Origin: a phage | Length of the DNA stretch: 64,000 nucleotides | Strand: one strand, 5' to 3' | Sequence record: PV636258.1 | The notes under the pieces: generated by a model | Told to the model about the DNA's origin: nothing | Database searches by the model: none | Seen by the model: only the letters and a program-made list of their open reading frames with translations | Made by a program: the position numbers and the translations under genes | Shown: in pieces, positions 3,023 through 27,613 of the stretch | Layout: every line of letters starts with the position of its first letter | How positions within the stretch are numbered: position 1 is the stretch's first letter

Positions 3023-3350
3023 TGTTATTCCCCTTTTGCTGCAAATCAGATACAGTAATCCGCAGTGTGCGAACATCATCTGAAAGACTGCTGCTATTGA
3101 GTTTTAACTCAGCCATGTTTTGTTTGACATATGCGAGGTCAGTATTCATGATCGCCATACGTTCACTCATGTCATTCACTTTCTGAAGAACTTGATCCAT
3201 CTTGTTGGAATCTCGTTCCAATACATTCACGCGCGTTTCCATCCCGCCCATGAACCAAAGGAACGATGCTGCCGAGACCAATGCAGAAGCCACGACAGCG
3301 GTTAAGATACCACGGATGTCAAGCCCCGTTCTTTCAGCTTGCGTCGCCAT
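3009..3350 (-). CDS. Membrane-anchored coiled-coil protein
   Basis: 113 aa; hydrophobic N-terminal segment (ILTAVVASALVSAASFLWF) followed by heptad-like, charged C-terminal region. Confidence 0.5.
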   Translation of the reverse strand: MATQAERTGLDIRGILTAVVASALVSAASFLWFMGGMETRVNVLERDSNKMDQVLQKVNDMSERMAIMNTDLAYVKQNMAELKLNSSSLSDDVRTLRITVSDLQQKGNNNGRQ

Positions 3351-3621
3351 TCTGACCTCCTTCGGGGATTTCGATCCCCAATTTTTCGGCCATCATTTTG
3401 ATTGTCGCCTCCAGATTAGATATCTGGTTTGATTGTTCAACAATGGTGGCTTCACGGGTTTCATTGCGTTGACGGGCTTGCAATGCAGCCATGCCAGCGG
3501 CGTGATCGGTGCAAATAATCGCGCCAGGGCAAGAACTGCTTCTCAACATGGATGCGTGCCCCTGTACTTTCACTCCACGCATATCTTTATCCTCTATTGG
3601 TTTGGTGGGCTTTACGCCCAC
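3334..3621 (-). CDS. Hypothetical small protein
   Basis: 95-aa ORF overlapping the next gene by 17 nt; start uncertain. Confidence 0.4.
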   Translation of the reverse strand: MGVKPTKPIEDKDMRGVKVQGHASMLRSSSCPGAIICTDHAAGMAALQARQRNETREATIVEQSNQISNLEATIKMMAEKLGIEIPEGGQNGDAS

Positions 3622-22814: not shown

Positions 22815-23384
22815 ATGCACATTAACACAGCAATCATGAAACACATTATTCCTTTATTGGCAAAATACGAAGGGGAACGTGCCACGAAAATCCCTTTTGG
22901 AACAATCACAGATGAAGTGAAACGCCTGACGGGTAAAAGTATCAATTTCCGTCGCGTTGTTGAATCTGCGTTAGAGTTGGCCCGTTCTGATTTACAAAAT
23001 CCAACATTTTCATTTAATATTGACGTAACTTCTTCACTTCGTCAAGAATTGGAAGAATCATCACAAGCGCGGCGCGATCGTTTCCGTCATTTATATGTTC
23101 GTAACGAATTCTCCGAAGGTCGTGTTGGTATGAAACTGGAGTCTATTCGTTCTGATATTTGCTTCACTGTCAACTATGTTTTAGAGCCAGAGAGCCAGCG
23201 CATTTATTTTGGCGCGATTATCGGTTTCTATGGGAACTCTATTAATGGTTGGGCAGAACGTGTTGGATTAAAAGAAACCCAGAACAATCATTCCACACCT
23301 TCTACCCATTATATGACGCATGAAGCTGCTGGCGAATATGTTTACCTTCTGCGTCGTGTTGTGAAGTTAGAAGTGTTAAAATAA
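22815..23384 (+). CDS. Hypothetical protein (189 aa)
   Basis: ATG-initiated ORF downstream of promoter-like element; no recognisable motif. Confidence 0.55.
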   Translation: MHINTAIMKHIIPLLAKYEGERATKIPFGTITDEVKRLTGKSINFRRVVESALELARSDLQNPTFSFNIDVTSSLRQELEESSQARRDRFRHLYVRNEFSEGRVGMKLESIRSDICFTVNYVLEPESQRIYFGAIIGFYGNSINGWAERVGLKETQNNHSTPSTHYMTHEAAGEYVYLLRRVVKLEVLK

Positions 23385-23441
23385 CGCTTTATTCAATAAA
23401 TAATTGTAGTAAAGTTAGTTGCATGGAAGGGAGGGAACACT

Positions 23442-23588
23442 ATGTTTTACATGATGTTACTCCTCATCCTCCTGATCGGGATTACCTGCTCTCTCCTGGG
23501 TCTACCCGATCAGTCCGGTAAACAGTTGCCCACTTCGGCGCATCCGGTTTTGAGTGAAGGTTCGTCCGCACTGCTGTGGGCAGTGTAG
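23442..23588 (+). CDS. Small hydrophobic peptide (48 aa), speculative
   Basis: ATG with GGAGGG SD 7 nt upstream; MFYMMLLLILLIGITCSLLGL predicted transmembrane; below the ORF-track length cutoff. Confidence 0.3.
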   Translation: MFYMMLLLILLIGITCSLLGLPDQSGKQLPTSAHPVLSEGSSALLWAV

Positions 23589-24409
23589 CTCAAAGGGGAG
23601 AGGACTTTTCAAATTAGCTGGGCTGTAGTATAGTAAATTTTATGGTGTAAAGAGTCGGGCGACCAGCGGTGTAAAGGCTGAGGCCAAGCACAGTCCTAGG
23701 ACGAGGACTCCGGCTCCATAAGTCAATATCCACCTCGCTGGTGTCAGTGGACGCACTTGACCGTCGGAGAACGAAACTCCCTGTTGTAGCGTGATTAGCT
23801 CAGAATCAGAGAGCACCCCGTTGGCAAGTCGACACCAGCATATAAGGGGAGGTCGGGGGCGCTAATCTCCATCACGCCGACAACATTATGAGTCTTCATA
23901 GAGGGTTCATAATGTTGCGTCAAAGGGCAACAAGGTTCCTGTTGGTAACATAATTATTCCTACTGTCTTCCCGGATTTTAGGAGCGCCAACAGGCGAGGC
24001 CGGATGCGTAAGTTCCGGCAAATCGATGGTGAGGTGGTGCATTGGTGACACGGGGTAGCGCCCAGAAGTGTGGTTCGATTCACACCCTCTCCAACAAAAA
24101 TAAAAGGTTTTATCAATAACGGGTTACAAAGTATAGTTAACTCACTGAACGGCAAGCTGTTTGAGTCCTGGCCACTCATAGCGATGTGAGACCAAGACAG
24201 GTAGGTTTAGGACTCAAACAGGTTTTCGTTCTCGTTGCTTGCGACTTTGCGGGTTTTTAGAAACTGACCACAAAGATAAATGCAAACGATAACACGTTCC
24301 TGGCAGTAGCTTAACAGCCATACACCAGTGAGGTCTTCCGATTCCTCATCACCAAATTCGGCGCACTAAAATAGACGGGAGGGTGTGATTAATAATCTCC
24401 CGTCGACGA

Positions 24410-24536
24410 TGCCGTTATATCTGACTGTCCAAAGGGGATAAGCTCCTGAGTAAGCAGAGGTGGGTTGCCTAAGTCAGATGGGATGTAAGGTCAGCGCTGG
24501 CCAAGCATTTGGGTTCGACTCCCTAAAACGGCTCCA
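24410..24536 (+). ncRNA. Extended tRNA-like element (about 127 nt): acceptor-like stem, T-arm-like hairpin and 3-prime CCA
   Basis: 5-prime GCCGTTA pairs 6/7 with AAACGGC placed directly after a GGG-TTCGACT-CCC T-arm; followed by T then CCA; body far too long for a canonical tRNA. Confidence 0.25.
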
Positions 24537-24623
24537 CATCTTAGAGGACATTGACAGGTGGAAGCATTTGGCGCCAAATGCTCGTGGCGGGTTCGAGTCC
24601 CGTGCAGTGTCCTCTAAGATGTG
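24535..24623. repeat. 16-bp perfect inverted repeat enclosing a tRNA-like core
   Basis: CACATCTTAGAGGACA (24535-24550) and TGTCCTCTAAGATGTG (24608-24623); interior holds 18-nt perfect palindrome GCATTTGGCGCCAAATGC and T-arm-like GCGGG-TTCGAGT-CCCGT. Confidence 0.7.
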
Positions 24624-24668
24624 AGCGAAGTCTTACCAATTGCCCTGATCTCTGGCAAGTGAAGGGCA

Positions 24669-24804
24669 ACGCAAATCGAAGTTCTCTGGGTATATCTTTT
24701 AACCCTCAAGGTCTGTACACAGAAGTGGCCGTCCCATGAGTAAGTTAGGCGATATACAACATGTTGGGTCGAACCTGTTAAGCCCAGAGAACTTCGATTT
24801 GCGT
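24669..24804. repeat. 22-bp perfect inverted repeat enclosing about 92 nt
   Basis: ACGCAAATCGAAGTTCTCTGGG (24669-24690) and its reverse complement at 24783-24804; nested 7-bp stem GTATATC/GATATAC inside. Confidence 0.7.
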
Positions 24805-25183
24805 ACTTGAGAGAGCGTTGTATGAAATAGGGCAATGCCTTGCAGACCTCGACGCCTACACATTCTAGACACTGGTGGGCGCTGGCGAAGATCTCAATAT
24901 AAGCTGGTCATCAAGGGTAGCTCCCTGACTAGACGAACAATGAGAGGCCGAACTAAGGGGAAACCCGAGACAGGCGCAGTATTTTCGAGTTCGCAAAACA
25001 GTGATCATCTGACAAGTGTGATCACTCTTCGATAGAGACATTACATCGTGGCCATCAACCACATCCTCGCTCTAGTGATGAGTGGTGTTATGTTTCTGTC
25101 GGCCAGCCTCGTTTGGTCCGAGCGATAGAGGACAAGTATTCTGTGTGACGAAGACATTGAATGCGAGTTGTAACATTTGGTTG

Positions 25184-25261
25184 CAACTTTGATGGCTCTG
25201 GATTTTATAAACCATGTCTATGGGTGACGCGGGATCTTTAGTACCAGAGCCATCAAAGTTG
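25184..25261. repeat. 18-bp perfect inverted repeat with 42-nt interior
   Basis: CAACTTTGATGGCTCTGG (25184-25201) and CCAGAGCCATCAAAGTTG (25244-25261). Confidence 0.7.
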
Positions 25262-25592
25262 TGTCCAACCCGATCTTGCAAGCCCGTATCCCTGTATGGT
25301 CAAGACTTGCAAGTGGAAAGCCCTGGAAAAATAAACGCCTGTGGTGAGGCTACGGTGCAAGCCAAAGACCCACAGAAGCGCGTTGCCGTGAGGCGCACAA
25401 ACAGGCATGCATGAACTGATCATGCACAAACGGGATAAAGGGTTGAGAGACCTTGGTTGGTCACAACATACAATTAATCCATAACGGGGAAGCAATATGA
25501 CTTGGCGACAGCGCGGATACAAAACCGTAGAATTGATTTAAAATTGCCGGCGTCCTGGTTGAGTGAGAGATCACTGCCGAAACCAGGAGGAA

Positions 25593-25618
25593 TGTGGGAG
25601 GGTAAATACCCTCCCACA
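25593..25618 (+). promoter_or_regulatory. Hairpin with TAAATA loop upstream of tRNA-Met
   Basis: TGTGGGAGGG-TAAATA-CCCTCCCACA; a second 11-bp inverted repeat CATATATGTTT/AAACATATATG (25628-25665) abuts the tRNA 5-prime end. Confidence 0.4.
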
Positions 25619-25664
25619 GACCAAGAACATATATGTTTGTGTATTTTTGTGCATAAACATATAT

Positions 25665-25741
25665 GGTCCTGTAGCTCAGTGGTAAGTAGCAGTGAACTCA
25701 TAATTCATTGGTCGTTGGTTCAAATCCAACCAGGATCACCA
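25665..25741 (+). tRNA. tRNA-Met (anticodon CAT; could also be an Ile-lysidine or initiator type)
   Basis: Hand-folded cloverleaf: acceptor GGTCCTG/CAGGATC (one G-T), anticodon stem GTGAA/TTCAT with loop CTCATAA, T-arm GTTGG-TTCAAAT-CCAAC, encoded CCA. Confidence 0.8.
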
Positions 25742-25778
25742 CTAAATAAACCAGTTGTTCAATAAACAATTGGTGAGT

Positions 25779-25979
25779 ATGATGAAAACGTTCGGTGATT
25801 TTCTTACTGAGTGGGATGGTCTAGCTACCGACAACAAAGAGATTGTTGAGTTTGTTGAAAAGCGAGGCGATAAGTGGGTTGTCCTTGACCACACCAAGAC
25901 TAAAGTTCTTGGGACACATGACACCAAAGCTGACGCCGACGCCCAATTAAGGGCGATCGAAGCGAACAAGCACGGATAA
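25779..25979 (+). CDS. Small hypothetical protein between tRNA genes (66 aa)
   Basis: ATG with GGTGAG SD; lies between tRNA-Met and tRNA-Asn. Confidence 0.4.
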   Translation: MMKTFGDFLTEWDGLATDNKEIVEFVEKRGDKWVVLDHTKTKVLGTHDTKADADAQLRAIEANKHG

Positions 25980-25980
25980 A

Positions 25981-26056
25981 GACGATGTAGTTCAGTCGGT
26001 AGAACGGCGGTCTGTTAAACCGTATGTCGCAGGTTCAAGTCCTGCCATCGTCGCCA
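25981..26056 (+). tRNA. tRNA-Asn (anticodon GTT)
   Basis: Acceptor GACGATG/CATCGTC, D-arm GTTC-AGTCGGTA-GAAC, anticodon loop CTGTTAA, T-arm GCAGG-TTCAAGT-CCTGC, encoded CCA. Confidence 0.85.
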
Positions 26057-26076
26057 AATAATAGTTGCAGGAACAC

Positions 26077-26568
26077 ATGAACACAAAACAGCGCGGGATG
26101 ATAGGTGAAACGAGGTTCCTGTTTAAATGTACAGAACTCGGGATCACAGTTTCACAACCTTTCGGAGATAATGCGCCATATGATTTTGTGATTGATGTGA
26201 ACGGTCGTTTGCTCAAGGTGCAATGTAAAACCTTGATGATGGACAAGAATACCTACCTTCTTGACGCAAGCACGACTAATTTCTACAACGGAAAATGCAA
26301 ATCCGTATACCATGGTGAGAAAGTTGATCTCTATTATGGTTACCATCCTGAAACTGGGATTGAAGTTTTGGTAGATCCGAAGCAATACCCTAAAAATTTA
26401 CGTTTGAGGGTGGAACCACCTAAAAATAATCAGGTGGTTGGGATCAAGTGGTTAAAGGATTTCCTGTTTGATAATGTTATCCAGGAAATTATGAATTATG
26501 GGTGTGAAACGAAAGCAAGTAAGCACGAAGTACGCGAACGACAAGTTCTCTCGAGCGACGTCCAATAG
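26077..26568 (+). CDS. Putative PD-(D/E)xK-family nuclease embedded in the tRNA cluster
   Basis: GETRF...PYDFVIDVNG...KVQCK pattern (E, D, D, Q-x-K) matching the restriction-endonuclease-like fold; AGGA SD before ATG at 26077. Confidence 0.45.
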   Translation: MNTKQRGMIGETRFLFKCTELGITVSQPFGDNAPYDFVIDVNGRLLKVQCKTLMMDKNTYLLDASTTNFYNGKCKSVYHGEKVDLYYGYHPETGIEVLVDPKQYPKNLRLRVEPPKNNQVVGIKWLKDFLFDNVIQEIMNYGCETKASKHEVRERQVLSSDVQ

Positions 26569-26569
26569 C

Positions 26570-27018
26570 CGAACGGAATCCGAACCCGACGAAAGTAACG
26601 CCCACCAAATTCAGAGTGTAGAGGCTACAGTAGTGCGCACCTCACGGAAAGCTACACCGGACACTCTGATACAAAATCTACCACCGCGTGGATTAGCTGA
26701 GGAAGGATGGCCGATGTCCTCAAGCGTGGCCCAGCACGTGGTGGTAGACCAAACACAGTAAGCGTTGCAGCCAGCTGTGTATAAAATGGGGTGACTCCAC
26801 ATCGGAAACGATGCCCCAACTTCCAGAAATGGTCGGGCGTGAAGCCTGTAAAGTTCCAGGAGATCAGACCAGAAGGCACTGGTCGCCTTGTTAACCAATC
26901 GACGCTTCGGCGTGGGGAGTTGGACAGGCAGATCAAATGCACAATCGGGTGTGAAGCCCGTCCATATTACGCTCGGTCAAGCAGTCTGTTTGTAGACGGT
27001 CGGTGCGGGTTTTGCAAG
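26570..27018 (+). ncRNA. Highly structured non-coding segment (candidate structured RNA)
   Basis: No RBS-supported ORF; multiple stable hairpins including UUCG loop (GACGC-TTCG-GCGTC region near 26905), GAAA loop (CATCG-GAAA-CGATG near 26795), 8-bp and 12-bp inverted repeats (26612-26669, 26689-26750). Confidence 0.35.
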
Positions 27019-27104
27019 ACTCGTTTAGGCTAACAAATGGATGAGGCGCGACTCTCTGGGTTGATCACCAGAGTGCTGGGGTTCAAATCCTCTAACGAGC
27101 ACCA
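27019..27104 (+). ncRNA. Atypical tRNA-like element (possible pseudo-tRNA or processed stable RNA)
   Basis: Clean 3-prime half: hairpin CTCTGG-GTTGATCA-CCAGAG, T-arm with TTCAAAT loop, 7-nt acceptor strand, ACCA; but 5-prime half does not give a canonical D-arm and the anticodon-like loop has 8 nt. Confidence 0.3.
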
Positions 27105-27110
27105 AACAAC

Positions 27111-27194
27111 GTGAGTGTGGCAGAGCGGTCGAATGCAGGAGACTGTAAATCTCCCCGTAACAGCGCGGTGGTTCAAATCCATCCACTCACACCA
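27111..27194 (+). tRNA. tRNA-Tyr (anticodon GTA), long variable arm
   Basis: Acceptor GTGAGTG/CACTCAC, 3-bp D-stem, anticodon stem GGAGA/TCTCC with loop CTGTAAA, long variable arm, T-arm GGTGG-TTCAAAT-CCATC, encoded CCA. Confidence 0.85.
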
Positions 27195-27270
27195 ATAAGT
27201 CGTTTCGGTCAGGTCAAGAACCCAGATTTAGGTCATGGCTTGGAAAATTCTTGACCGAAGCGCAGTATAC

Positions 27271-27359
27271 GGAAGGTTGCCCGAGAGGTTTAAGGGACTC
27301 GACTGCTAATCGAGTGGGGCTTTTAGCCCCCGAAGGTTCGAATCCTTCACCTTCCGCCA
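27271..27359 (+). tRNA. tRNA-Ser (anticodon GCT), long variable arm
   Basis: Acceptor GGAAGGT/ACCTTCC, anticodon stem CTCGA/TCGAG loop CTGCTAA, variable-arm hairpin GGGGC-TTTTA-GCCCC, T-arm GAAGG-TTCGAAT-CCTTC, encoded CCA. Confidence 0.85.
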
Positions 27360-27362
27360 AAT

Positions 27363-27448
27363 TGCTTCATAGCTCGAGTGGTAGAGCGCAGGAAAGTTTC
27401 GAGAGAACAAGGTGCCTGAGGTCACTGGTTCGAATCCAGTTGAAGCAA
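27363..27448 (+). ncRNA. tRNA-like gene with canonical acceptor, D and T arms but a 22-nt anticodon-region loop
   Basis: Acceptor TGCTTCA/TGAAGCA, D-arm GCTC-GAGTGGTA-GAGC, T-arm ACTGG-TTCGAAT-CCAGT all perfect; anticodon arm is a 4-bp stem CAGG/CCTG around 22 nt; no encoded CCA. Confidence 0.4.
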
Positions 27449-27458
27449 TCAGAATAAT

Positions 27459-27613
27459 GAGTGTGACTTCCTGAAGATGAAGAAGGTGTGCATGCCGACT
27501 TCATAACAATCTGGGGTTAAGGAAGTTAAGAAAGTCGCAGGATATGCAAGTGAAATGCAAATAGCTTTCAACGTCCTGACGATTTCGGGTTCGATTCCCG
27601 ACGCACTCTCCCA
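27459..27613 (+). ncRNA. Candidate stable RNA with tRNA-like ends (about 150 nt)
   Basis: GAGTGTG at 27459-27465 pairs (one G-T) with CGCACTC placed directly after T-arm TCGGG-TTCGATT-CCCGA; followed by T and CCCA; lies between the last tRNA-like gene and the terminator at 27674. Confidence 0.25.

Follow-up and report, generated by a model that had tools for sequence, protein, structure and literature searches.

A conserved non-coding locus beside phage tRNA genes contains a tmRNA-like message module with complementarity to host tmRNA

Main finding

We analyzed a segment of about 2 kb (positions 23590-25664) in the window, that is, the whole 64,000-nt stretch of phage DNA under analysis. This segment is a conserved non-coding RNA locus, probably a polycistronic one. 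Its core module, named RNA X (about 24143-24410), contains a tmRNA-type tag frame preceded by a domain complementary to host tmRNA. Our best explanation, to which we give somewhat less than an even chance, is that X derives from the message half of tmRNA, pairs with the tmRNA of the host and replaces or blocks its template.

A structured non-coding segment adjoining tRNA genes

The segment is non-coding in character. As the first-pass annotation had held, no credible gene is present: the longest ORF spans 90 aa, and ten ORFs of 62-90 aa in 23590-25664 gave neither a Pfam match at or above the curated cut-off nor a PHROG match. The G+C content is ~0.50 versus ~0.41 in the flanks. Some GenBank records imply several very small proteins here, with ORFs of 30-70 aa called by their depositors (Magnus, KE28 and SeF3a, for example, are annotated with 9-11 hypothetical proteins). 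In addition to the negative Pfam and PHROG searches, what speaks against such proteins is that the indel lengths seen among relatives are not divisible by three, that conservation tracks base pairing and not reading frames, and that most records annotate nothing; we give this reading almost no credence. Whatever the mechanism of X, the small "hypothetical proteins" annotated in this region are unwarranted.

The inverted repeats, palindrome and T-arm-like motifs previously listed were all recovered in place. Perfect inverted repeats of 16 bp (24535-24550/24608-24623), 22 bp (24669-24690/24783-24804) and 18 bp (25184-25201/25244-25261) are the only ones in the 64-kb window with arms ≥14 bp and loops ≤150 nt, and perfect repeats of ≥14 bp occurred in 0 of 300 dinucleotide shuffles of the region, which bears out the earlier view that these stems exceed chance. 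The 18-nt palindrome GCATTTGGCGCCAAATGC is located at 24564-24581, and T-arm-like motifs are found at 24069 (GGTTCGATTC), 24511-24523 (GGGTTCGACTCCC) and 24589-24601 (GGGTTCGAGTCCC). Folding z-scores (minimum free energy versus dinucleotide shuffles) were -9.4 for 24535-24810, -6.6 for 25470-25664, -5.9 for 25160-25470, -3.7 for 24143-24410 and -3.2 for 23641-24095, compared with +0.6, +1.3 and -0.7 for three coding control segments. Across Ackermannviridae genera, a noncoding block is placed between a 189-aa hypothetical gene and the tRNA genes, the bordering tRNA gene being tRNA-Met where annotated. The suggested presence of structured RNA next to the tRNA genes was supported, and the alignment across relatives that had been proposed revealed compensatory base changes in the long stems.

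Modular organization of the locus

The features outside RNA X, together with the tRNA gene that follows the locus, are listed below.

23606-23634, + strand: promoter-like site P1 (TTTTCA-17-TATAGT); consensus scan, sequence kept in four genera
23791-23877, + strand: tRNA-like element 1; read from the sequence
23880-24025, + strand: conserved structured block; sequence identity, folding z -3.2 for the enclosing segment
24034-24088, + strand: insertion/deletion segment with a T arm (GTGTG GTTCGATT CACAC, 24064-24081); comparison with relatives
24110-24137, + strand: promoter-like site P2 (TTATCA-16-TATAGT), upstream of RNA X; consensus scan, conserved in alignment
24411-24536, + strand: tRNA-shaped element with encoded CCA (GCCGTT...TTGGG TTCGACT CCCTA AAACGGC T CCA)
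24535-24623, + strand: long hairpin I4 (16-19 bp); inverted-repeat search, compensatory changes in the stem
24669-24804, + strand: long hairpin I1 (22-bp perfect stem); inverted repeat and covariation
24805-25100, + strand: conserved block with a nearly invariant core at 24947-24977 (GGCCGAACTAAGGGGAAACCCGAGACAGGCG); alignment
25165-25465, + strand: conserved structured RNA of ~300 nt; alignment A3, folding z -5.9
25486-25625, + strand: optional module with a 12-bp perfect hairpin (25593-25604/25607-25618); inverted-repeat search
25665-25741, + strand: tRNA-Met (CAT), the first canonical tRNA gene past the locus; ARAGORN and Rfam

At least eight modules of the locus are each separately present, absent or replaced in related phages. 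The tRNA-like element 1 possesses a 7-bp acceptor stem (GCGTGAT/ATCACGC), a canonical D arm (TAGCTCAGAATCAGAGAGCA), an aberrant T arm and a 4-bp anticodon-like stem enclosing a 27-nt loop; this last stem covaries (CCCC/GGGG in the window versus TCCC/GGGA in UPM 2146). The block at 23880-24025 is 84-94% identical across Kuttervirus, Taipeivirus and Agtrevirus, compared with ~75% in its flanks. The adjacent segment at 24034-24088 is missing from ZQ1, Ecl02, Magnus and L013, and its site is occupied by a different T-arm insert in KWBSE43-6 and by an ORF in IME250. The tRNA-shaped element at 24411-24536 is restricted to Ackermannviridae (199 records, 191 of them ≥95% identical); Shigella phage MK-13 has compensatory changes in its acceptor stem and two arms, while the element is missing in L013 and half replaced in fGh-Ecl02.

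The tip of hairpin I4 bears the 18-nt palindrome and a T arm (24587-24603). Its stem is retained via compensatory changes, and the tip is missing in ZQ1 and different in IME250 and UPM 2146. In hairpin I1, 93.7% of cells are paired among nine distinct sequences, versus 13-47% when the partner is slid, with compensatory changes at four pairs. The long perfect stems mostly serve as conserved bases whose tips hold variable inserts, often with a T arm. Further downstream, the block at 24805-25100 shows 78-83% identity across genera. The ~300-nt RNA at 25165-25465 comprises hairpins at 25165-25189 and 25190-25255 (the latter including the 18-bp repeat), followed at 25260-25465 by a multi-branch domain that is closed. 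For this RNA, 70 consensus pairs emerged from alignment A3 (13 Ackermannviridae), 12 with compensatory changes and very few broken. Its sequence identity among relatives is 80-96%, and this holds for Dickeya phage phiD3 too. It is a separate structured RNA with no known class. The module at 25486-25625 is limited to the lineage of the window and part of Taipeivirus (87-89% identity) and is missing in ZQ1 and IME250.

Two further observations concern insertions. Relatives in Taipeivirus carry the STnc100 sRNA (RF02076), inserted at a site that falls between 25137 and 25159 of the window (L003 3309-3522, 48.7 bits), the window itself having no RF02076 match. In addition, HNH endonuclease genes are inserted at the locus in some relatives.

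The many presence/absence differences among relatives, T-arm inserts at several sites, inserted HNH genes and several imperfect tRNA-like elements would all fit functionless evolutionary debris, namely decayed tRNA/tmRNA genes together with homing-endonuclease and mobile-element scars. Nevertheless, several blocks are 90-100% identical across genera with flanks at ~75%, stem pairing is kept by compensatory changes, and X, whose tag frame is constrained, is retained in unrelated phage families, making debris a very improbable account.

The first-pass annotation had proposed one or more large structured RNAs. The structured RNA was borne out; on sequence comparison, however, the locus is a mosaic of modules and not a single giant ornate RNA. 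Like GOLLD and ROOL, it is encoded by a phage, lies adjacent to tRNA genes and is heavily structured, and a whole 2-kb RNA of the GOLLD/ROOL/OLE kind could be imagined from its size, its tRNA-gene neighbour and its strong structure. Unlike those RNAs, the locus is modular with internal promoter-like sites and has no covariance-model match: GOLLD, ROOL, OLE, raiA, HEARO, group I/II introns and RNase P gave no gathering-score Rfam match in the whole window and no match at E ≤10 on 23300-27500, in line with the earlier statement that homology to GOLLD and ROOL is absent. Moreover, the second promoter-like site inside the region is conserved, no long-range pairing ties the ends together, and modules are lost, replaced independently or found alone in other phages. 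A giant RNA is therefore an extremely unlikely reading.

RNA X resembles the message part of tmRNA

RNA X was absent from the earlier feature list, and the accompanying claim that nothing in the segment shows homology does not hold: a tmRNA-type tag frame at 24282-24314 had been overlooked, and an X profile matches phage tmRNAs (E 5e-6). X comprises the following elements.

24147-24231, + strand: hairpin I3, arms 24147-24169 and 24209-24231; inverted repeat, compensatory changes
24219-24269, + strand: 5' domain, antisense to host tmRNA about nt 53-106; alignment, RNAduplex
24270-24281, + strand: linker ACAAAGATAAAT, with A-U-A at -6 to -4 of the resume codon; alignment A1, ARAGORN
24282-24314, + strand: tag frame GCA AAC GAT AAC ACG TTC CTG GCA GTA GCT TAA (ANDNTFLAVA*); ARAGORN, codon statistics
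24300-24328, + strand: helix-5-like hairpin (24300-24303/24325-24328, 24307-24311/24316-24320) with the stop codon in its loop; covariation
24329-24361, + strand: pseudoknot A, hairpin 24329-24333/24344-24348, loop CCGA (24338-24341):TCGG (24358-24361); covariation
24362-24404, + strand: pseudoknot B, stem CGCACT/GGTGTG (24362-24367/24382-24387); stem covaries

Hairpin I3, which lacks a T arm and whose 3' arm extends into the beginning of the antisense domain, shows compensatory changes from GAGTCC/GGACTC to GGGCA/TGCTC in ZQ1, UPM and IME250. The linker ACAAAGATAAAT is nearly invariant in alignment A1, and its A-U-A is taken by us to match the E. coli determinants A84-U85-A86. ARAGORN reports the resume consensus at the linker and ANDNTFLAVA* at an 80% threshold, and no tmRNA at default settings. 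Tags at 120 related loci begin with AND or ANE and end with LAVA, LMAA, RIAA or VAA. Other X tags include ANDDVVLMAA and ANEEMYLAVA. Among 82 unique X-family sequences, the stop (TAA, TGA or TAG) falls exactly at codon 11 in 81, and codon 10 is always Ala, specified by four synonymous codons. Variability at the three codon positions is 1.37, 1.30 and 3.01, the third being ~2.3 times the first or second. Frame length, the three stop triplets, the synonymous Ala codons and the third-position excess together indicate selection on the encoded peptide.

The structures behind the frame also covary. One pair of the helix-5-like hairpin changes from GC to AU in 15 sequences. In pseudoknot A, >99% of cells are paired and the loop pairing covaries (CCGA:TCGG, CCAA:TTGG, CCAG:CTGG). 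The loop of pseudoknot B (GACGGGAG, 24374-24381) pairs with CTCCCGTC (24397-24404), and as read from the alignment this pairing co-changes between families (GCCC:GGGC, GCCCTGA:TCAGGGC, GACGGGAG:CTCCCGTC). Taken together, helix 5 and the two pseudoknots are 95.4% paired versus 29-43% with the partner slid, with compensatory changes in 11 of 24 pairs, a score reached by 0 of 500 shuffles.

An nhmmer profile of the X message and pseudoknots matched phage permuted tmRNAs at two loci, L126 (E 5.5e-6) and L076 (E 3.3e-5), which score 125-150 bits with Rfam. In the Rfam covariance search that had been advised, GOLLD, ROOL, RNase P and introns were absent and tmRNA models hit X below threshold only (RF00023, 10.5 bits against 47; RF04321, 22.5 against 47; RF01850, 14.1 against 84). 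Sense similarity between X and host tmRNA is marginal (z 2.2).

Comparison of X with other tmRNAs

Like standard tmRNA (RF00023), X has a GCA resume codon after an A/U-rich linker with A-U-A at -6 to -4, a 10-codon tag beginning AND/ANE and ending hydrophobic-Ala/Val-Ala, and a stop codon in a helix-5-like hairpin loop followed by H-type pseudoknots. It differs in that the message is not joined to a G3:U70 acceptor stem, T arm or CCA, and in that a stretch antisense to host tmRNA stands where PK1 and the 5' strand would be. The X message is not flanked covalently by the strands of a 7-bp acceptor stem with G3:U70, nor by a T arm or a 3' CCA; the sole G3:U70 candidate in the window (23846/24082) is not conserved. 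In the alignment, no covarying pseudoknot (PK1) was found upstream of the X resume codon, where the antisense domain lies. Upstream of X, T1-like and Felix-like phages have TTGACA-17-TAGATT or TATAGT; the T1-like copies begin a few nucleotides past the promoter, and an intrinsic terminator closes the Schitoviridae (N4-like) copy. Of the 25 X cluster representatives checked, many lack a T arm between -300 and +500 nt.

Permuted two-piece tmRNAs (RF01850 beta_tmRNA, RF04321; the phage loci L076 and L126) carry a message and first pseudoknot homologous to those of X, and in both cases the tag-bearing RNA is a separate piece with a free end. Their gene order, seen in L076 and L126, is an acceptor piece (T arm, 3' acceptor strand, CCA), a spacer and a coding piece; the last begins with the 5' acceptor strand (GGGCCTG...), which X lacks. 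This order was not found in the window, where the T arm at 24064-24081 is an indel whose 3' strand has no partner beside X. In known two-piece tmRNAs, the acceptor and P2 helices, and not PK1, connect the pieces. X has neither helix and is instead complementary to another molecule, the tmRNA of the host.

Complementarity of the 5' domain to host tmRNA

The 5' domain of X (24219-24269) opposes the 3' part of PK1, the linker, resume codon G90 and the first five tag codons of tmRNA. This complementarity is the best of 12,790 window tiles (41 vs 18 ± 3). RNAduplex gave -44.0 kcal/mol with Salmonella tmRNA, against -28.3 ± 4.1 for shuffles (0 of 300 as low), a stability gain of 15.7 kcal/mol over the average shuffle. 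When reverse-complemented, the 5' domain aligns to nt 53-107 of E. coli tmRNA in each of the 41 diverse members (z 2.7-8.5), the score being reached by 0 of 200 shuffles in 34 of them, and complementarity to host tmRNA exceeds that to the downstream sequence of X itself in 41/41. A profile of the 5' domain searched against 115 enterobacterial tmRNA loci plus L076 and L126 produced 111 weak matches (E ~0.4-0.5 each), those checked being antisense at ~nt 68-102. The target stretch of tmRNA is almost invariant in Enterobacterales, and different lineages preserve the complementarity with different 5' domain sequences. The complementarity of X to host tmRNA is beyond chance and is kept across lineages.

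Several observations count against a pairing model. The X-tmRNA duplex is interrupted by bulges, with ~38-40 of 51 nt paired, and would have to form in competition with PK1, which is stable in the host RNA. Hairpin I3 of Ackermannviridae already engages the initial ~13 nt of the antisense domain, and in Y. pestis, which carries pMT, the host tmRNA differs in the target stretch of X.

A possible host-phage tmRNA and competing explanations

Trans-translation is the main bacterial ribosome-rescue and quality-control pathway, and some phages depend on it. On the best explanation, the two phage promoter-like sites would drive the locus, with the transcript running into the tRNA genes. X would base-pair with host tmRNA, opening PK1 and covering both the resume codon and the first codons of the host tag, and the duplex would take the usual place of PK1, 12 nt upstream of the resume codon of X. 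Ribosomes rescued by host Ala-charged tmRNA-SmpB could then switch to the phage template, resume there and append the phage tag, the predicted outcome being a two-piece tmRNA made of host and phage RNA. To our knowledge, such a hetero two-piece tmRNA has never been described. If this is true, products of stalled ribosomes in infected or lysogenic cells would receive a phage-specified tag, and X would represent the first hetero-molecular (host plus virus) two-piece tmRNA and the first case of a virus taking over trans-translation through its template. A template and an antisense handle combined in one phage RNA would be a new viral control of translation quality control as well as a new topology for tmRNA function. 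Whether or not the mechanism is right, at least two RNA families supported by covariation, X and the ~300-nt RNA at 25165-25465, are absent from Rfam.

Phage and prophage antisense sRNAs such as DicF likewise have a conserved seed-like 5' region complementary to a host RNA, and X is also encoded in lambdoid prophages as they are. Unlike in DicF-type sRNAs, the target of X is non-coding (tmRNA), the complementary stretch spans ~50 nt, and a translatable template of tmRNA type is fused to it. A pure anti-tmRNA inhibitor or decoy, whose own frame is unused as a template and which pairs with tmRNA or titrates SmpB, S1 or RNase R via its message and pseudoknots, would fit the complementarity data equally and would suit the lack of an acceptor domain in cis. 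A precedent exists in mycobacteriophage DS6A, whose TLD-only tmRNA inhibits tmRNA, perhaps via SmpB titration (PMC4131195). X and the DS6A RNA are both partial tmRNAs of phages, each proposed to interfere with host trans-translation, but DS6A keeps the tRNA-like domain only (PMC4131195, PMC11915505), whereas X keeps the message/pseudoknot part only and adds the antisense domain. As a decoy would not need an open frame, yet the X frame shows selection on its peptide, we regard pure inhibition as unlikely.

The tRNA-shaped RNA with CCA directly past X (24411-24536) counts against our best explanation and favours a self-contained phage tmRNA in pieces. Here X would be the coding piece, delivered to stalled ribosomes by a neighbouring charged tRNA-shaped RNA, i.e. 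24411-24536 in the window and a tRNA-like 3' domain or neighbouring tRNA in other phages. A tRNA-shaped element or tRNA gene does lie 3' of X in Ackermannviridae, T1-like, lambdoid and Felix-like phages; 24411-24536 covaries, encodes a CCA and bears a T loop of tmRNA type (UUCGACU); and complete permuted tmRNAs exist in phages (L076, L126). However, none of these tRNA-like elements has G3:U70 (24411-24536 has G1-C72, C2-G71, C3-G70 and U73), no conserved pairing was found between X and the tRNA-like piece, and Schitoviridae (N4-like) and pMT-type copies of X lack a nearby tRNA-like partner. The element at 24411-24536 is itself missing in L013, half replaced in fGh-Ecl02 and absent beyond Ackermannviridae, and this scheme leaves the antisense domain unexplained; we consider it decidedly unlikely.

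ARAGORN and the Rfam tRNA model (RF00005) made no tRNA calls for 23791-23877, 24411-24536 and 24535-24623, the only tRNA-related match in these elements being to tRNA-Sec (18.5 bits, 24547-24611). Non-coding transcripts punctuated by tRNA-like elements are known from MALAT1-mascRNA and from the phage T4 tRNA cluster with its stable RNAs C and D. The present locus resembles them in having tRNA-shaped elements directly 3' of a non-coding RNA and a transcript that would continue into tRNA genes, but its tRNA-like elements, the CCA-encoding one included, have no detectable kinship to those systems, and processing here is a prediction. Most likely, the tRNA-shaped element at 24411-24536, the inserts with T arms and the tRNAs downstream act as RNase P/Z punctuation that would release X and other RNAs.

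Distribution of RNA X

X was found in 664 phage records from unrelated families, and no annotation of X was present in any record inspected. It also occurs in 584 of 5,426 E. coli genomes (~1 in 9), and lambdoid prophages of this species are among its carriers; in the one prophage inspected (E. coli 55989), X is located between Q and the holin gene. A tmRNA-like message joined to a stretch complementary to host tmRNA suggests interference with ribosome rescue by many enterobacterial phages. The stronger proposal, that a widespread class of phage RNAs docks ~50 nt of antisense onto charged host tmRNA, silences the host tag and offers its own, is possible but doubtful. Phage-plasmids, including Yersinia pestis pMT, have X as well, and its carriers include hundreds of sequenced phages (Kuttervirus, Felixounavirus, T1-like, T5-like) with an existing or proposed use in therapy and biocontrol.

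Organization of the noncoding RNA locus upstream of the tRNA genes

The stretch at 23590-25664, immediately upstream of tRNA-Met (25665-25741), shows 94-96% identity to the Salmonella Kuttervirus phages PhiSH19, PM10, and Chennai (Ackermannviridae). The same order was observed in all Ackermannviridae genera examined: a baseplate wedge gene (minus strand), a gene for a 189-aa hypothetical protein (plus strand), an interval of 1.5-3 kb that lacks credible genes, and finally tRNA genes (tRNA-Met or others). The first-pass annotation had described the stretch as protein-free, with three perfect inverted repeats, an 18-nt palindrome, and T-arm-like motifs, all of which were recovered in place. The longest ORF encodes 90 aa, and neither Pfam nor PHROG assigned a family to any of the ten ORFs of 62-90 aa. 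Apart from the three repeats, the 64-kb window has no perfect inverted repeat whose arms reach 14 bp, and none occurred in 300 dinucleotide shuffles. Folding energy lies 3-9 SD below that of shuffles in most sub-segments (z ~0 for coding controls), and G+C content is ~0.50 versus ~0.41 in the flanks.

Two checks proposed at that stage, a covariance-model search and an alignment of relatives, were carried out. Gathering-score matches to Rfam were confined to tRNA genes; at E <= 10, weak fragments of tmRNA_permuted (24164-24314, 22.5 bits), beta_tmRNA (24261-24362, 14.1 bits), and the tmRNA 3' T arm (24511-24523, 10.5 bits) appeared. Alignment with ZQ1 (Aglimvirinae) and with UPM 2146 and IME250 (Taipeivirus), together with mapping onto 13 Ackermannviridae loci, revealed a mosaic. 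Blocks 23880-24025, 24411-24536, 25102-25137, and 25245-25470 have 90-100% identity between genera, compared to ~75% in their flanks, while the T-arm segment 24034-24088, the tip of hairpin 24535-24623, and module 25486-25625 are found in some relatives and missing or replaced in others. An STnc100-family insert is present in the Taipeivirus locus, and HNH endonuclease genes in that of some Kutterviruses. Pairing of the long stems is kept through compensatory changes, which were found in hairpin I3 (24147-24231), in I1 (24669-24804, a 22-bp stem; 93.7% paired, four double changes), in I2 together with the RNA at 25165-25465 (double changes in 12 of 70 pairs), and, in phage MK-13, in the tRNA-shaped block 24411-24536. 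The conserved mosaic and its compensated stems rule out both a protein-coding region and random sequence, and argue against a single giant RNA. The earlier observation is confirmed and its interpretation is partly supported: the reading as a structured noncoding RNA locus stands, whereas one or more large RNAs give way to a modular mosaic.

The best-supported identity is a modular noncoding RNA locus whose core, RNA X (about 24143-24410), is a new form of tmRNA-derived RNA that would be aimed at host tmRNA. The segment 25165-25465 is a well-supported separate structured RNA restricted to Ackermannviridae. Two promoter-like sites were detected:

23606-23634, promoter-like site P1, TATAGT, conserved
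24110-24137, promoter-like site P2, TATAGT, conserved

No convincing terminator was found before tRNA-Met. By analogy, the tRNA-shaped elements at 23791-23877, at 24411-24536, and at the tip of 24535-24623, along with the downstream tRNAs, would most plausibly mark the sites at which RNase P/Z cuts a long precursor; MALAT1-mascRNA and the T4 tRNA cluster with its stable RNAs are analogues of such tRNA-like punctuation.

Several lineage-specific features were also recorded. The STnc100 insert (an Rfam family of gammaproteobacterial sRNA) occupies 3309-3522 of the Taipeivirus locus L003 and also occurs in the Taipeivirus loci L013, L014, and L026. In Klebsiella and Serratia Ackermannviridae it falls between the equivalents of window positions 25137 and 25159, and it is absent from the window. 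Among close relatives, HNH homing endonuclease genes lie inside the homologous locus of Salmonella phages SP1, Se-G, SeF3a, and FrontPhageNews, and the helicase and the reverse transcriptase domain protein annotated over the locus in the vB_SenA_SM5 record look spurious. The T-arm-bearing segments of the window behave as indels at several sites. Repeated long hairpins flank X in an E. coli 55989 prophage (L130, 3920-4380) and in other compared loci (L005, L015, L017, L023, and others). The hairpins of T1-like and lambdoid phages share a conserved base, CACAACAGGTAAGAGCA...TGCTCTTTCCGTTGTG, and their tips carry inserts that are wholly different in each phage, some with T arms. Such variable T-arm inserts suggest a small mobile or recombinogenic tRNA-like cassette. 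A hammerhead was considered for the hairpin insert downstream of X in L017, where GCGCGCCTGACGAGTCC...GGGACGAAACGC...GCGTCGCGCG is core-like, but no match at the Rfam gathering score bore it out.

RNA X contains a tag-like reading frame and a tmRNA-like message structure

The frame at 24282-24314 (GCA AAC GAT AAC ACG TTC CTG GCA GTA GCT TAA) encodes ANDNTFLAVA*, a peptide similar to ANDENYALAA, the tmRNA tag of enterobacteria, and ARAGORN reports the tag and a "resume consensus" when its threshold is lowered to 80%. Approximately 150 nt around the tag are the sole part of the locus common to unrelated phages, including T1-like siphoviruses, Felixounavirus, Schitoviridae, and T5-sized contigs. 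When IMG/VR was searched by pattern, 120 loci in 54 clusters were recovered, with tags such as ANDDVVLMAA, ANEEMYLAVA, ANDNVFLAVA, and ANDEQFLAVA. Among 82 unique X sequences, the stop falls exactly at codon 11 in 81 (TAA 73, TGA 7, TAG 1), and codon 10 is invariably Ala, specified by four synonymous codons; third codon positions of the frame are ~2.3 times more variable than first or second ones. The fixed stop, synonymous Ala codons, and third-position variation together form the signature of a translated frame. The main rival, that X is a pure inhibitor or decoy of tmRNA, has a precedent in the TLD-only tmRNA of phage DS6A (PMC4131195), but it leaves this constraint unexplained and we consider it unlikely.

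The stop codon of X lies inside a helix-5-like hairpin that is followed by two H-type pseudoknots. Across 41 diverse sequences, helix 5 and the pseudoknots are 95.4% paired, versus 29-43% when the 3' partner is slid. Compensatory changes affect 11 of 24 pairs, and the structure score was reached by none of 500 shuffles. A profile of the message and pseudoknots matched two permuted (beta-type) tmRNAs of phage contigs, L126 (E 5.5e-6) and L076 (E 3.3e-5), both of which are recognized by ARAGORN and Rfam with 125-150 bits. Because these matches are to bona fide permuted tmRNAs, X derives from the message half of tmRNA.

Both L076 (2357-2764) and L126 (2358-2732), from IMG/VR (one being 3300000439_001431), contain complete beta-type circularly permuted two-piece tmRNA genes with the tags ANDEKFRIAA and ANDESFRIAA, and L126 places its gene amid many tRNA genes. 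An alternative frame in X was also considered: the invariant AAATGCAAACGA at 24280-24309 holds an ATG in a different frame (MQTITRSWQ* in the window). Across the family, the first stop of this frame is at codon 7 or 9, with neither length nor sequence conserved, and its use is unlikely.

RNA X lacks a tRNA-like domain

Neither a GGG... acceptor strand, a T arm, nor CCA was found flanking X. The T1-like copies start a few nt past a TTGACA-17-TAGATT promoter, the 3' end of the Schitoviridae (N4-like) copy is an intrinsic terminator, and in many cluster representatives no T arm occurs within -300 to +500 nt of X. The tRNA-shaped elements that often lie 3' of X are without G3:U70, lineage-variable, and dispensable:

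24411-24536 (window), tRNA-shaped block
T1-like and lambdoid phages, tRNA-like 3' domain
Felix-like phages, tRNA-Arg

The block at 24411-24536 ends in CCA, as would suit a self-contained multi-piece phage tmRNA in the window; such an arrangement is not general among X carriers and does not account for the antisense domain described below, and we consider it quite improbable.

Three candidate acceptor domains were rejected. The first, a complete mini-tmRNA at 23846-24092 (GGGGAGG...CCTCTCC-A, with G3:U70, a P2 helix, and a T arm), forms in the minimum-free-energy fold; however, its T-arm segment is an indel, acceptor pairing is lost in Se-J, ZQ1, UPM 2146, and IME250, and its "tag" ANRW* is also unconserved. 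The second, 24411-24536 as a homologue of the tmRNA 3' third, gave a similarity z of -0.2, with only the T loop and GCTCCA end being tmRNA-like. The third, a downstream "tRNA-like domain" with G3:U70 in the Felix-like phage Alf5, is not a conserved acceptor domain, since most Felix-like contigs have an ordinary tRNA-Arg(UCU) there.

The 5' domain of RNA X is complementary to host tmRNA

When reverse-complemented, 24219-24269 aligns with nt 53-104 of the E. coli and Salmonella tmRNAs, an interval that extends from the 3' part of the first pseudoknot (PK1) through the linker and the resume codon G90 to the fifth tag codon. The same interval was found in all 41 diverse X members (z 2.7-8.5), and in 34 of them the antisense score was unreached by any of 200 shuffles. 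Complementarity is kept by differing sequences in different X lineages:

T1-type X, antisense blocks UAGUUUUCG, UGCGAC, and UUUGCGGGUUUUUA
Lambdoid-type X, 20 of 22 continuous positions
Schitoviridae (N4-like) type X, GCGAUUAU opposite AUAGUCGC
Felix-type X, UAGUUUUCGUUGCGUAGCGUCUAUUUU
pMT/SSU5-type X, GUUUUCGU and GCGACU

Among 12,790 tiles of the window, 24219-24269 scored best against host tmRNA (41 vs 18 +/- 3), and its predicted duplex with Salmonella tmRNA has an energy of -44.0 kcal/mol versus -28.3 +/- 4.1 for shuffles (0/300). Pairing of the 5' domain with its own message or the rest of the locus was rejected: complementarity to host tmRNA exceeds that to its own downstream sequence in 41/41 members, and the best internal scores were 21-23 versus 41 for host tmRNA. 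A 5'-domain profile was run against a set made up of 115 tmRNA loci from enterobacteria together with L076 and L126. It gave 111 weak matches (E ~0.4-0.5 each), and the ones checked were antisense, at tmRNA ~nt 68-102. Across Enterobacterales, the targeted stretch of tmRNA hardly varies. The reading of AGTTTTCG as a D-loop analogue of permuted tmRNA, homologous to GGTTTCGAC in L076, was dropped as the main explanation because the entire 5' domain is antisense to host tmRNA.

Y. pestis plasmid pMT was uninformative as a test of host-specific covariation, since the same element type occurs on 105-115-kb plasmids of Enterobacter, Citrobacter, Klebsiella, and Salmonella. The tmRNA of sampled Yersinia (Y. 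rohdei group) differs in the stretch X would target, and tmRNAs of the Yersinia, Serratia, and Rouxiella type differ within nt 53-106. Separately, 23650-23725 resembles host tmRNA nt 278-326 (3' strand, helix P2) in sense orientation, marginally (z 2.4, 10/300 shuffles) and in the Kuttervirus lineage only.

A possible template-swap mechanism

We infer a template swap, in which X would dock onto host tmRNA, the duplex standing in for PK1 and hiding both the resume codon of the host and the beginning of its tag. The template would come from the phage, whereas SmpB, EF-Tu, and the Ala-charged tRNA-like domain would come from the host. The resume codon of X lies 12 nt past the predicted antisense duplex, a spacing comparable to that in E. 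coli tmRNA, where G90 follows PK1 by 10-11 nt. The A-U-A of X at -6 to -4 corresponds to A84-U85-A86, the frame-setting bases known from tmRNA genetics. Docking combined with a phage-supplied template would explain together why X has no tRNA-like domain, why its frame looks translated, why it carries an antisense domain, and why it is confined to enterobacterial phages.

Distribution of RNA X

X was detected in 664 of 50,697 phage records and in 584 of 5,426 complete E. coli genomes; in the one prophage inspected, of E. coli 55989, it lies between the Q antiterminator and holin genes. It also occurs on ~100-115-kb non-mobilizable plasmids, probably phage-plasmids, including Y. pestis pMT, where it adjoins caf1R. 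It is unannotated in all records inspected. The tmRNA database papers count 79 unique tmRNA sequences from phages. Mycobacteriophages, Bacillus phage G, and DS6A with its TLD-only form are the only ones named in the earlier of these papers, and no enterobacterial phage appeared in the text and supplements covered. Full-text literature searches, incomplete in coverage, found no report of a tmRNA-like or anti-tmRNA RNA from a phage; an earlier description is possible.

The pMT copy (L257, 660-800, beside caf1R) has the tag ANEDTYLAVA, and X of this type is also present on 105-115-kb plasmids of Enterobacter, Salmonella, Klebsiella, and Citrobacter.

Neighboring tRNA region

A second G+C-rich (~0.53), ORF-poor stretch at 26570-27110, immediately upstream of tRNA-Tyr, is more stably folded than its shuffles (z -2.9), and Rfam gave no match to it at E <= 10; it may be another noncoding RNA module of the same tRNA region. 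At 27363-27448, a fifth tRNA gene, unreported by ARAGORN, was recognized by the Rfam tRNA model (48.7 bits).
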